From an uncultured Gemmatimonadales bacterium (GTDB lineage Bacteria > Gemmatimonadota > Gemmatimonadetes > Gemmatimonadales > GWC2-71-9), in NCBI GenBank assembly GCA_963844035.1, contig CAWJMT010000036.1, positions 181,534 through 245,533 on the forward strand: a stretch of 64,000 bases of DNA, written 5' to 3'. This document shows positions 49,764 to 52,861 of the stretch, piece after piece (position 1 is the first letter of the stretch; every line of letters begins with the position of its first letter). The position numbers were made by a program, and so were the translations under genes. Under the pieces are notes generated by a model. The model was not told where the DNA came from, made no database searches, and was given only the letters and a program-made list of their open reading frames with translations.

Positions 49764-51050
49764 TTGGCCAAACGCCCCACGGCCACAAAAAAAGCGAAGA
49801 GGCAGGCCAGTTCGCACTCGCGAGGTGTCGCGCGTGCGGCACCGTTTCGAGCGCCTGCTCGAGGCGGGCGTCGCGATATTTTCCGAGCACTCACTCAGTG
49901 CCGTGCTGCAGCGCGTCGCGGATTCCGCGCGCGAGGTCGTTGGCGCACGCTACGCCGCGTTGGGCGTGATCGGCGAGGACGGCACGACCCTCACCCAATT
50001 CATCACCTCCGGGATGTCCGAGGCCGAGCGGGAGCGCATCGGCGATCTCCCGCAGCGGCCGCGGGCTGCTCGGCCTGGTCATCCGCAAACGCAAGGCGAT
50101 TCGCTCCGCGGACTTGAACCGTCATCCCGAGCGGGTCGGGTTCCCGCCCCATCACCCCCCGATGAAATCGTTTCTCGGCGTCCCGATCGTACTGCGGGGC
50201 AAGGTGTTCGGGAACTTGTACCTGACCGAGAAGGTCGGGGCGAAAGAGTTCGATGCCGAAGACGAGGCGATCGCCGCGTTCCTCGCGACGAAGGCTGCGG
50301 TGGCCGTGGAGAGCGCACGCCTGTACGAGCAGAGCCAGAAGCTCGTCGGTGAGGTGCAGGAGATGCACCGGCAGCGCGATCTCTTCTTCGCCTCGATGAA
50401 CCACGAGCTGCGCAACGCCCTCACCGGCGTGTACGGCTGGGCGGAGCGGTTGGTCCGCGCCAAGGGCAGCCCGCAGGCGCTCGCGGAGGCGGCGAACGAG
50501 GTGTACGAGGGGGCGGAGCGGACGATCACGCTGCTCAACAATTTCCTGGACTTGAGCCGGCTCGACGCCGGCAAGGTGCGTCCCGTGATGCGGGACGTGG
50601 ATGTGCACGCCGCGGTGAAACGGGCCATTCGCGACCGTGCGGCCGGCAGCGGACGCGAAGCAGCAGCGGCTCGAAGCTGAGTACGCCAACGGCATTTCGC
50701 GCGTGCGCAGCGACCCGTTGCGAGTGGAGCAGATCCTCCTCAACCTCCTGCGCAACGCGGTGCAACACAGTCCCGACAACGCACCGATCACCGTGCGCGT
50801 CGCTGCCGAGACGGAGGGGATCACCTTCCGGGTCGTCGATCGTGGCCCGGGCATCCCGGCCGACGTGCAAGCGTGGATCTTCGAGCCGTTCGAGCGCTTC
50901 GACACGGAGTCAGGCGTCGGTACCGGACTCGGACTTCCGGTCTCGCGCAAACTTGCGGAGCTGCTGGGCGGGCGGCTCACCGTTGAGAGCCGGGTGGGGG
51001 AAGGCGCCACCTTCACGCTCGCGCTTCCCGCGACGCCGCCCCAAGTGTGA
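49764..51050 (+). CDS. Cytoplasmic sensor kinase: DosS/DevS-type GAF + HisKA + HATPase (frameshifts ~49830, ~50053, ~50632; start uncertain)
   Basis: [46 protein letters not shown], DRGPG and GTGLGL. Confidence 0.88.
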
Positions 51051-51101
51051 GCCTTTCTTCAGGTAGCGTTTGCCGTGGGTTTACCAAGCCCCGGCTAGTC
51101 T
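51047..51101 (+). promoter_or_regulatory. CTTCA-box promoter of the response regulator (possible autoregulation)
   Basis: GTGAGC-N4-CTTCAG-N5-GTTTGC-N5-GTTTAC-N11-TAGTCT. Confidence 0.65.
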
Positions 51102-51127
51102 GACACAACACTTACTCCCCATATGCC

Positions 51128-51814
51128 ATGAAAATCCTTGTCGTAGAAGACGATCGCAAAGTCGCCGGTTTCATCGAGCAGGGGCTCCGGGAGGAGGGCT
51201 ACGCCGTGGACGTGGCCCCCGACGGAGATCAAGCCACGATGCTGGCGCACGTGTACGAGTACGACTTGCTCGTGCTCGACGTCATGCTCCCGAAAAAGAC
51301 GGGGCTCCAGATCGCCGCAGAGCTGCGCCGCGAGGGGCGCAAGACCCCCATCCTGATGCTCACGGCGCGGGACACCACGGAGGATGTGGTGCGCGGGCTC
51401 GACGCGGGAGCGGACGACTACCTCACCAAGCCGTTCAAGTTCGACGAGCTGCTGGCCCGCGTGCGCGCCCTGGTGCGGCGCGGGGGCGCCGGGCGCACCG
51501 AGTTGCTGAGCTACAGCGCCATCGAGCTCGACCGCCTGAAGCACAAGGCCAAAGTCAACGGCAAGAAGCTGGACTTGACCCCGAAGGAGTTCCAGCTGCT
51601 CGAGCACTTCCTGTTACGGCCTGAGGAGGTCATTCGGCGGACCGACTTGCTCGAGAAGGTGTGGGACCTGCACTTCGATCCGGAGAGCAACGTGGTCGAC
51701 GTGCACGTGGGTAACCTGCGTCGCAAGCTGCGCGAGGCGGCCGGCGTGGATCTGCTGGCCACCGTGCGTGGCGTGGGGTTCCGCCTGCAGTCGCCCGACC
51801 GGGCCGACGAGTGA
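51128..51814 (+). CDS. OmpR/PhoB-family response regulator (CusR/MprA-like)
   Basis: VVEDD, LDVMLP, GADDYLTKPF, LTPKEF, NVVDVHV and TVRGVGF. Confidence 0.95.
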   Translation: MKILVVEDDRKVAGFIEQGLREEGYAVDVAPDGDQATMLAHVYEYDLLVLDVMLPKKTGLQIAAELRREGRKTPILMLTARDTTEDVVRGLDAGADDYLTKPFKFDELLARVRALVRRGGAGRTELLSYSAIELDRLKHKAKVNGKKLDLTPKEFQLLEHFLLRPEEVIRRTDLLEKVWDLHFDPESNVVDVHVGNLRRKLREAAGVDLLATVRGVGFRLQSPDRADE

Positions 51815-52861
51815 AGTCTTCCCTCCGGTGGTCGCTCGCCGCCCGGTTCGCGGCGACGATGGCCGCCGGGCTCGCCGCGGCATCCGCCGTGCTGTTCTCC
51901 TTTCACACCTCGCTGTTCGCAACGACGTCGCAGCAGCTGCTGCTGGCGCTCGTGCGTGGTCGTGGTGCTCGGCTCCGGCGCCACCTTCGTCGGTGCCTGG
52001 TGGCTTGCCTGGTCGGCCGTGCGGCCGGTCGCGGAGATCACGGCCCAGGCCACCGAAATCGAATCCGGAACGCTCAATCACCGGATTGTCGCGCACGCCG
52101 ACACCGAAGAGTACCGCGACCTGGTGGCGGTTTTGAACGGCATGCTGGAGCGTTTGGACGCCGCGTTTCAGGGCCAAGGCCGCCTGATTGCCGACGTCAG
52201 CCACGAGCTACGGACGCCGCTCACGGCCATGCGCGGCGAAATCGAAGTCGCGTTGCGCGGCGAGCGCACGCCGCGCGACTACGAGCTGGTTCTGCGCAGC
52301 GCGCTCGAGGGAATTGAGACGCTCACCACGATGAGTGAAGACCTGCTGCTGATCACGCGGGCGGAGTCGCGTCACCTCGCGCTCGACCGGGCACCGACCG
52401 ACCCCAACGCGATCGTTCGCGGCGCGGTGGAGCGGCTGCACACGCTCATCGAGGAAAAGGGGTTGGAGGTTGAGCAATCGCTCGACCCGGAGGTGCGCTC
52501 GGTACCGCTCGATCCGACCCTCGTGACCCGGCTCGTGGAGCACCTGATGGACAACGCAGTGAAGTTCACTCCGTTTGGGGGACGGATCGGCATCCGGACG
52601 GAATCCGTCACGCCCGCCATGACCGGCGTGCGTGTGGCCGTCGAAAACTCCGGCCCAGGGATTGCGGCGGTGGATCTGCCGCACGTGTTCGAGCCGTTTT
52701 ATCGGGCCGACCAGGCGCGCAGCTCGGGAACGGGAACCGGTCTGGGACTCACCCTGGTCGCGGCGATCGCCCGGTTACACGGCGGCGCGGTCCGCGTGCG
52801 CAACCAGAACGGCACGGGCGTCAGGTTCGAAGTGGATCTTCCCGCGCCCGCCTCTGCCTGA
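51811..52861 (+). CDS. Membrane histidine kinase TM-TM-HAMP-HisKA-HATPase with a very short external loop (frameshift ~51955)
   Basis: Two adjacent TM segments; SHELRTPL, DNAVKF, FEPFYR and GTGLGL. Confidence 0.88.

Follow-up and report, generated by a model that had tools for sequence, protein, structure and literature searches.

How does a haem-type GAF domain like those of the Mycobacterium tuberculosis sensors DosS and DosT control gene expression when its gene lies directly before an OmpR-family regulator? The question is raised by a 64,000-nucleotide stretch of contig CAWJMT010000036.1 (assembly GCA_963844035.1) from an uncultured Gemmatimonadales bacterium, hereafter the window, in which a preliminary description made from the letters alone had pointed out such a sensor kinase gene. 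Comparison with related loci and genomes shows that the circuit is real and family-wide in its domains, residues, gene order, promoter boxes and co-occurrence. The reading that we favour, with somewhat more confidence than doubt, is that a DosT-type GAF kinase is switched on when its haem is in the deoxy state and signals to the adjacent regulator, which would act on about 20 promoters of the island at 11-base CTTCA repeats.

The GAF kinase and its predicted haem pocket

The kinase gene and its key residues lie as follows (window positions).

49764..51050, + strand: soluble sensor kinase with one DosT-type GAF, HisKA and HATPase_c; about 427 codons if three extra bases are errors
50153..50155, + strand: His aligned to DosT His147 / DosS His149 (proximal haem ligand), invariant in 99 of the 99 relatives covering the position
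50219..50221, + strand: Tyr aligned to DosT Tyr169 / DosS Tyr171 (distal, gas discrimination), present in 100 of 100 relatives
50402..50404, + strand: phospho-acceptor His of the H-box NHELRN (HisKA match), kept in 100 of 100 relatives

The open reading frame (ORF) runs from a TTG start at 49764 to 51050 and is split in the assembly into four frame pieces, which are taken up further below. From these pieces Pfam recovers GAF_2/GAF and HisKA at 50054-50632 and HATPase_c at 50637-51047, the architecture that had been predicted, and the locus bears out the earlier description in its GAF stretch, its H-box, the missing membrane segment and the OmpR-family gene next to it. Homologues are typically intact proteins of 400-430 residues, and in 102 of 103 of them no 19-residue segment exceeded the hydrophobicity threshold. 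Close homologues with named records come from Gemmatimonadales or Gemmatimonadota; at E 1e-60 or better, 93 of the 113 genomes in the window's family have the kinase, as do 7 of 137 other genomes of the phylum.

The GAF had been likened to GAF-A of DosS and DosT, and this match holds, although by sequence the domain is DosT-like rather than DosS-like. The best solved-structure match of the window piece is 2VZW (E 2.3e-29), followed by DevS GAF-A (2.3e-25), and an intact relative matches 2VZW at E 2.1e-45 with DevS GAF-A again next; 2VZW is the DosT GAF (PMC8534201). Residues were compared over 100 unique relatives, which remained of 108 rows once 5 duplicates and 3 actinobacterial rows of DosS type had been set aside. 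The roles that had been proposed for the His and the Tyr are supported by alignment and by the invariance of both residues, with DosT His147 / DosS His149 serving as proximal ligand and Tyr169/171 as the distal residue (PMC4082495). The G-x-G haem loop is likewise kept (Gly115 in 98/98 and Gly117 in 98/98 relatives), as is Gly85, the DosT-like residue at the position of DosS Glu87, in 93 of 97; the Gly85/Glu87 difference is a proposed but disputed determinant of a stable oxy complex (PMC4082495). From these residues, the GAF is predicted to bind haem. An AlphaFold model of a relative (L027; mean pLDDT 89, pTM 0.73, no haem in the model) has a single helix, residues 155-222, spanning from the GAF to phospho-His204.

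A glycine where DosS has Glu87 would favour a stable oxy complex, which makes oxygen the suggested signal. The same wiring could instead serve NO, CO, redox state or haem supply, or the kinase could be active with oxygen and otherwise act as a phosphatase. Several points lean that way and so speak against a low-oxygen switch: DosS and DosT respond to O2, NO and CO, and whether they sense gas or redox state is debated (PMC4082495, PMC8534201); two pocket positions differ from DosT, with Tyr98 replaced by Thr in 89 of 100 relatives and the Arg87/His89 position hydrophobic; and NmpU, a haem kinase of Myxococcus, is predicted to be active with O2 (PMC11841059), so that signal polarity is not readable from haem alone. 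Against another signal, the Gly85-type channel and the distal Tyr are conserved as in DosT, and the genes behind the boxes belong to classes that are hypoxia-induced in the DosR and NmpR regulons. On balance, we regard a different signal as unlikely, if still worth keeping in mind.

The regulator and its two neighbouring kinases

The rest of the operon and its divergent neighbour are arranged as follows.

51128..51814, + strand: OmpR/PhoB-family response regulator, Response_reg plus Trans_reg_C (Pfam); best NCBIfam model the heavy-metal cztR/silR/copR subfamily, below its cut-off
51811..52861, + strand: second kinase, membrane-anchored, HAMP-HisKA-HATPase_c, CusS-like, in a short form without periplasmic domain; one frame break near 51950
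52901..54709, + strand: P1B-type metal ATPase, a frequent fourth gene of the operon (domain and model matches, relatives' loci)
49332..49734, + strand: CBS-domain gene, first of the operon; one frame break near 49435 (domain match)
48217..49134, - strand: tandem universal stress protein (USP), divergent from the operon (domain match)

The preliminary description had correctly placed a GAF kinase and then an OmpR-family regulator in this interval but had missed the second kinase at 51811-52861. The pairing that it proposed is conserved: a regulator orthologue stands beside the GAF kinase in 87 of 100 unique loci, directly downstream in 84 and divergent upstream in 3, and 2 further GAF kinases end at a contig edge. 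The membrane kinase, by comparison, is present in 56 of the 84 downstream loci, absent from 24 and cut off in 4 (80 readable), and it occurs in 2 of the 3 divergent loci. Seen from the regulator, 24 of 25 orthologues (at least 73% identity) in 41 genomes follow a GAF kinase, and the 25th starts at base 252 of its own contig. Nine genomes that carry the pair (G008, G011, G016, G021-G024, G036, G038) yielded no membrane-kinase orthologue with this query, their best matches being 34-39% identical. The first helix of the regulator's receiver is nearly invariant with or without the membrane kinase. Loci lacking that kinase are scattered over several branches of the regulator tree, a quick tree of 61 of 88 sequences that has no tested root and from which every second locus with both kinases was dropped; for these reasons repeated loss is likely rather than proven.

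We also predicted a complex between the GAF-kinase core and the receiver, which scored 0.45 against 0.02 for the best control, with contacts agreeing to at least 83% and a partner pLDDT of at least 80. In the benchmark, 116 of 157 solved pairs and 2 of 215 mismatched pairs reached the mark, and scores of 0.60 or less were held by 18 solved and both mismatched pairs. We take this prediction as weak support, as a textbook kinase-receiver pair may reach such a score simply by resembling solved ones. Having been made with the GAF kinase alone, it does not distinguish one kinase from the other. Across relatives, gene order favours the GAF kinase as the regulator's constant core partner. In this genome, where the CusS-like kinase shares the operon, the regulator probably has two kinase inputs.

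Could the membrane kinase, reading a metal or envelope signal, be the regulator's true partner, with the GAF kinase serving another receiver? For regulator and membrane kinase alike, the top-scoring models are of the heavy-metal CusR/CusS type: TIGR01387 for the regulator, at 232 bits (cut-off 279, which places it outside the curated subfamily), and the cztS/silS/copS model TIGR01386 for the kinase, at 221 bits for the window piece and 236 for an intact relative (cut-off 293, likewise outside); on these best matches below cut-off, the two are a plausible old pair. The membrane kinase has two N-terminal hydrophobic stretches and an intact H-box, its gene overlaps that of the regulator by four bases, like an ancestral pair, and the P1B ATPase comes next in the operon. 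At six loci, more distant relatives of the regulator and membrane kinase are paired without any GAF kinase, paralogous GAF kinases adjoin single-domain receivers, and for 11 of 100 GAF kinases no adjacent regulator was called (4 stand next to a different receiver, 7 next to none that was called). These observations count against the GAF kinase as partner. However, the 24 loci that lack the membrane kinase keep the GAF kinase and regulator adjacent, with boxes in 20 of the 24, and the periplasmic domain is gone in 32 of 63 membrane-kinase copies; an exclusive role for the membrane kinase is, in our judgement, quite improbable.

The surroundings of these genes vary among relatives. Membrane kinases fall into two size classes, 447-481 residues with a periplasmic domain (31/63) and 334-361 residues without one (32/63, including the window's). 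Between the genes for the membrane kinase and the ATPase there are often two more, for a short protein like cytochrome oxidase subunit II and for one like subunit I, both typed by BLAST to window genes alone (L063, L066, L084 and others). The TPCP motif of the window's ATPase presumably places it in subgroup P1B-5. Paralogous GAF kinases at L035, L049, L053 and L122 are followed by a short receiver-only protein and no OmpR regulator; at L054, L126, L133 and L141, a PAS-PAS arrangement precedes the haem-type GAF, and no regulator adjoins; and L127, L130 and L140 carry two-GAF variants divergent from the regulator.

CTTCA boxes, their likely reader and the state of the assembly

The window has 14 copies of the word CTTCA-N6-CTTCA, counting those with at most one mismatch, where 1.41 would be expected. 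None of 100 shuffles reached this number, and the window, 1.8% of the genome, holds 4 of the genome's 7 perfect copies. Across 100 related loci, 211 intergenic sites have the 11-base spacing, or 17.0 per 10 kb against 0.58 in coding sequence, and other CTTCA spacings give 0.6-2.6 per 10 kb. Most of these intergenic boxes (188/211) face a same-strand gene, the median distance being 52 bases, and the genes behind them include USP (50), the regulator (32), CBS (20), the GAF kinase (10) and unassigned (63). An A-n-n-n-T -10-like element lies 12 bases past the last half-site in 79 of the relatives' 147 sites, with at most 9 at any other offset, and a third, weaker upstream half-site is direct in 32/147 and inverted in 40/147. 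A box matrix built on the relatives without the window, used at a threshold of 13 bits, finds 28 window sites, 27 of them intergenic in a window that is 13% intergenic; the reversed matrix finds 0 and column-shuffled matrices average 0.6. Several matrix matches in an AT-rich stretch of contig C4, outside the window, were treated as artefacts. This stretch (G000:C4:about 426000-450000) is markedly AT-rich within a GC-rich genome and is possibly foreign DNA or contamination.

The boxes of the window and the genes that they precede are these.

49258..49284, + strand: three CTTCA-type half-sites with 11-base period upstream of the kinase operon; likely autoregulatory site
49297..49302, + strand: -10-like hexamer GATACT, 12 bases past the last half-site, the offset seen in 79/147 relatives' sites
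49184..49199, - strand: divergent box before the USP gene (48217..49134)
2802..2817, - strand: box before an A/V-type ATP synthase operon
9684..9699, + strand: box before a NiFe hydrogenase and hyp operon
20713..20728, + strand: perfect box before 20798 (unknown gene, then MgtC/DUF4010)
23300..23315, - strand: perfect box before 23263 (hexapeptide-repeat protein)
24961..25018, no single strand: two divergent perfect boxes, the + one preceding a USP and ABC-transporter operon
30728..30743, + strand: box before hydrolase-like and ferritin-like genes
33782..33797, + strand: box before CBS gene 33863
35057..35072, - strand: box before CBS gene 34984
38161..38176, - strand: box before an S30AE ribosome-hibernation gene and groEL
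39756..39771, + strand: box before a phosphoribosyltransferase-erythromycin-esterase gene, with weaker divergent sites before a BON gene
54714..54740, + strand: triple box before a DUF998 gene

The adjacent OmpR-family regulator had been named as the likely reader of these boxes, and the comparison supports this: the boxes are enriched, they co-occur with the system across genomes, and tandem 11-nucleotide direct repeats are the binding mode of OmpR/PhoB proteins (PMC4415409). Perfect dyads average 7.9 (control 2.7) in the 93 family genomes with the kinase and 3.65 (control 2.65) in the 20 without it; the unpublished genomes G081, G199, G174 and G119 enter this tally and that of the kinase's spread, and the unpublished G020 enters the 41-genome comparison of regulator orthologues and the matrix scan. 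Leaving out G081 and G199 gives 3.78 and 2.67. Presence of boxes in the 20 of 24 loci without membrane kinase and in paralogous regulator loci points to the regulator family as the reader. Three observations pull the other way: a dyad excess over control is also found in family f2 (6.3 against 4.3, ratio 1.45), the tallies treat related genomes, which are not independent, and the paralogous regulator-membrane kinase loci without GAF are boxed in 3 of 6 cases.

Another factor, whether PhoB, KdpE, LexA, CRP/FNR or a NarL-type protein, would be a very improbable reader. The genome does hold two other strong OmpR-family regulators, seven strong LuxR/NarL-type regulators and two CRP-type matches, and an 11-base TTCGG repeat lies upstream of recA. 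This recA word is, however, distinct from the box and not enriched in the window (4 against 2.5 expected); nor is an FNR-like pattern (0 in the window) or a DosR-like core (1 against 4.85 expected), and the window has no GerE match that would mark a NarL-type partner. Moreover, the dyad excess tracks the system across genomes, and the regulator gene is itself the second most frequent named target, with 32 sites. The recA promoter repeat, TTCGG-N6-TTCGG at L163:1396-1411, is an 11-base direct repeat in its own right, unlike the CTTCA box.

The targets bear on what the circuit is for. Those in the window include two USP genes, three CBS genes and a BON protein, and boxes outside it precede, among others, genes for a di-haem cytochrome c peroxidase and OsmC/DUF302 proteins. 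Some window genes may be orthologues of Rv2030c and Rv2004c, although PMC7753917 does not confirm this in its available part. The DosR regulon contains USPs, hrp1, ctpF and bacterioferritin (table in PMC4090907), an S30AE protein is under DosR control (PMC3390679), and the Myxococcus NmpR regulon has CBS, USP, P-type ATPase and oxidase genes (PMC11841059). By analogy, the window set of USP, CBS, hibernation factor, NiFe hydrogenase and ATP synthase resembles a hypoxia regulon, and it is this likeness, together with the DosT-type pocket, on which the low-oxygen reading rests.

Some sites stand apart from this pattern. A triple CTTCA-type repeat at 62877-62903 of the window lies over the end of an Rrf2 gene and faces away from a cytochrome oxidase operon, possibly as an antisense promoter or a repression site. 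At L145:2521-2547 (G000:C37:263020-263046), a strong box and its -10-like element point into 300 bases that hold no called gene on their strand, where a small RNA or small protein is possible. At L146:2445 (G000:C5:235444), a box upstream of a NarL-type regulator gene could mark a downstream tier of the regulon.

As to the broken frames, those of the kinase are three single extra bases, at 49804, 50053 and 50630, each of which is left out in a low-depth contig (2.7-7.8) from a close relative (one contig per extra base; the X4 and X5 values are identical and were counted once), and comparable breaks occur in the unrelated window genes USP, CBS, groEL and cox; the kinase breaks are therefore most likely assembly errors. 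A search of sequencing runs found none with half of the words and none from the exact organism. That the kinase is a pseudogene with real frameshifts is scarcely credible: the assembled gene does carry three breaks, and no run from the organism itself was found, but every extra base is missing from a relative's contig, similar breaks hit unrelated genes across the window, and the catalytic and haem residues are intact. An RNA contig from a relative bridges the CBS-kinase junction, although such a contig does not establish a single transcript. At 35345-36772, one ORF joins the groEL C-terminus to a bacterial archaeo-eukaryotic release factor domain, probably through a frame error.

Proposed circuit and comparison with known systems

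In the circuit that we favour, the conserved His would hold a ferrous haem with the distal Tyr opposite, and the DosT-like Gly at the DosS-Glu87 position would allow a stable oxy complex and hence the sensing of O2; by analogy with DosT, NO and CO probably bind as well. The kinase would turn on when oxygen leaves the haem iron. As the last GAF helix runs unbroken into the phospho-His helix in the relative's predicted model, the signal could pass directly, without the second GAF of DosS. The GAF kinase would then phosphorylate the adjacent regulator, which is expected to recognize CTTCA-N6-CTTCA as a head-to-tail repeat standing where a -35 element would be, and to activate USP, CBS, hibernation-factor, hydrogenase and ATP synthase genes as well as its own operon. 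The CusS-like kinase, missing in many relatives, may serve the regulator as an optional second input or as a phosphatase.

More tentatively, and with doubt outweighing confidence, we suggest a kinase takeover underway: a haem sensor would have captured an ancestral CusRS-like pair, whose regulator would now be the family's master switch for hypoxia and dormancy, while the membrane kinase would be losing its periplasmic sensor and would repeatedly have been lost, so that a Dos-like programme would have been built independently with its own operator. Haem-type GAFs are widespread, with 1,463 clusters at E 1e-30 or better. Among the best 150 of these, 128 have the His/Tyr motif, and simple motif rules assign their outputs to HisKA_3 (50), this family's core (14), other HisKA (11) and other or partial (53); the transmitter swap is thus not unique, as haem-type GAFs are joined to HisKA outside the window's family too. 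The GAF phylogeny that had been called for (FastTree, 105 rows, 149 columns) was run and is poorly resolved, with HisKA_3- and HisKA-linked haem-type GAFs intermixed, and it gives neither donor nor event order. A plasmid search returned 44 records, all with actinobacterial genus names. No description of the system was found in the literature searched, which was listings and abstract openings of mostly non-subscription papers, nor in the available parts of PMC13287260, PMC10312584, PMC7753917 and PMC9388753; its novelty could shift, since genome-wide regulon predictions in supplements may bear on it.

Since sensor domains are often shuffled, it is the whole conserved circuit with its dispensable second kinase that surprises here, rather than the fusion. 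If the proposal is right, it supplies a sensor, a regulator, an operator and a target list, all predicted from sequence, for low-oxygen adaptation in a mostly uncultured family. A soluble one-GAF kinase with a standard HisKA core would also be a simpler case than DosS/DosT of how a haem GAF controls a kinase, and a DosT-type sensor would here be linked to Dos-like targets through unrelated middle parts.

Among other known systems, SrrA and ArcA are OmpR-family regulators, but their kinases SrrB and ArcB respond to quinone or redox state, and FixL of FixLJ has a haem PAS domain instead of a haem GAF. Kinases linked to respiration are themselves known (PMC8534201). The 11-nucleotide head-to-tail repeats recall the Pho box of PhoB/PhoP but differ in the word, here CTTCA. 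CusRS/CzcRS/CopRS (TIGR01387/TIGR01386) provide the best models for the regulator and membrane kinase, and the P1B ATPase downstream is a further likeness. The scores here stay under the curated cut-offs, however, and the regulator is linked with a haem-type GAF kinase and has stress and energy genes as its likely targets. NmpRSTU of the soil bacterium Myxococcus xanthus is likewise a haem-dependent kinase system that autoregulates a CBS-headed operon and has genes for USP, P-type ATPase and oxidase under its control (PMC11841059), but it differs in having a protoglobin sensor, a phosphorelay and NtrC/sigma-54 output.

The closest comparison is with DosS/DosT and DosR. Shared with them are the GAF-A proximal His, the distal Tyr, the G-x-G haem loop and the DosT-like Gly85, probably the use of two kinases for one regulator, and overlapping target classes, namely USPs, a cation ATPase, a ferritin-like protein, an S30AE factor and a CBS protein, for which we take Rv2626c/hrp1 as the counterpart. 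The differences lie in the parts between. This kinase has one GAF and DosS/DosT have two, and in three relatives with two GAFs the haem-type GAF is the second, unlike DosS/DosT, where the haem GAF-A precedes. The transmitter differs as had been proposed, being HisKA with an F-box here and HisKA_3 with a short ATP lid in DosS/DosT, and HisKA_3 also at the actinobacterial loci scanned (L142, L143). DosR is a NarL-type regulator that uses a palindromic Dos box; the regulator here is OmpR-type and the box an 11-base direct repeat. The second kinase, a paralogue in the DosS/DosT pair, is here a membrane CusS-like protein. By its defining features, the Gemmatimonadales system is therefore not a member of the DosS/DosR family, although it likely works like one.

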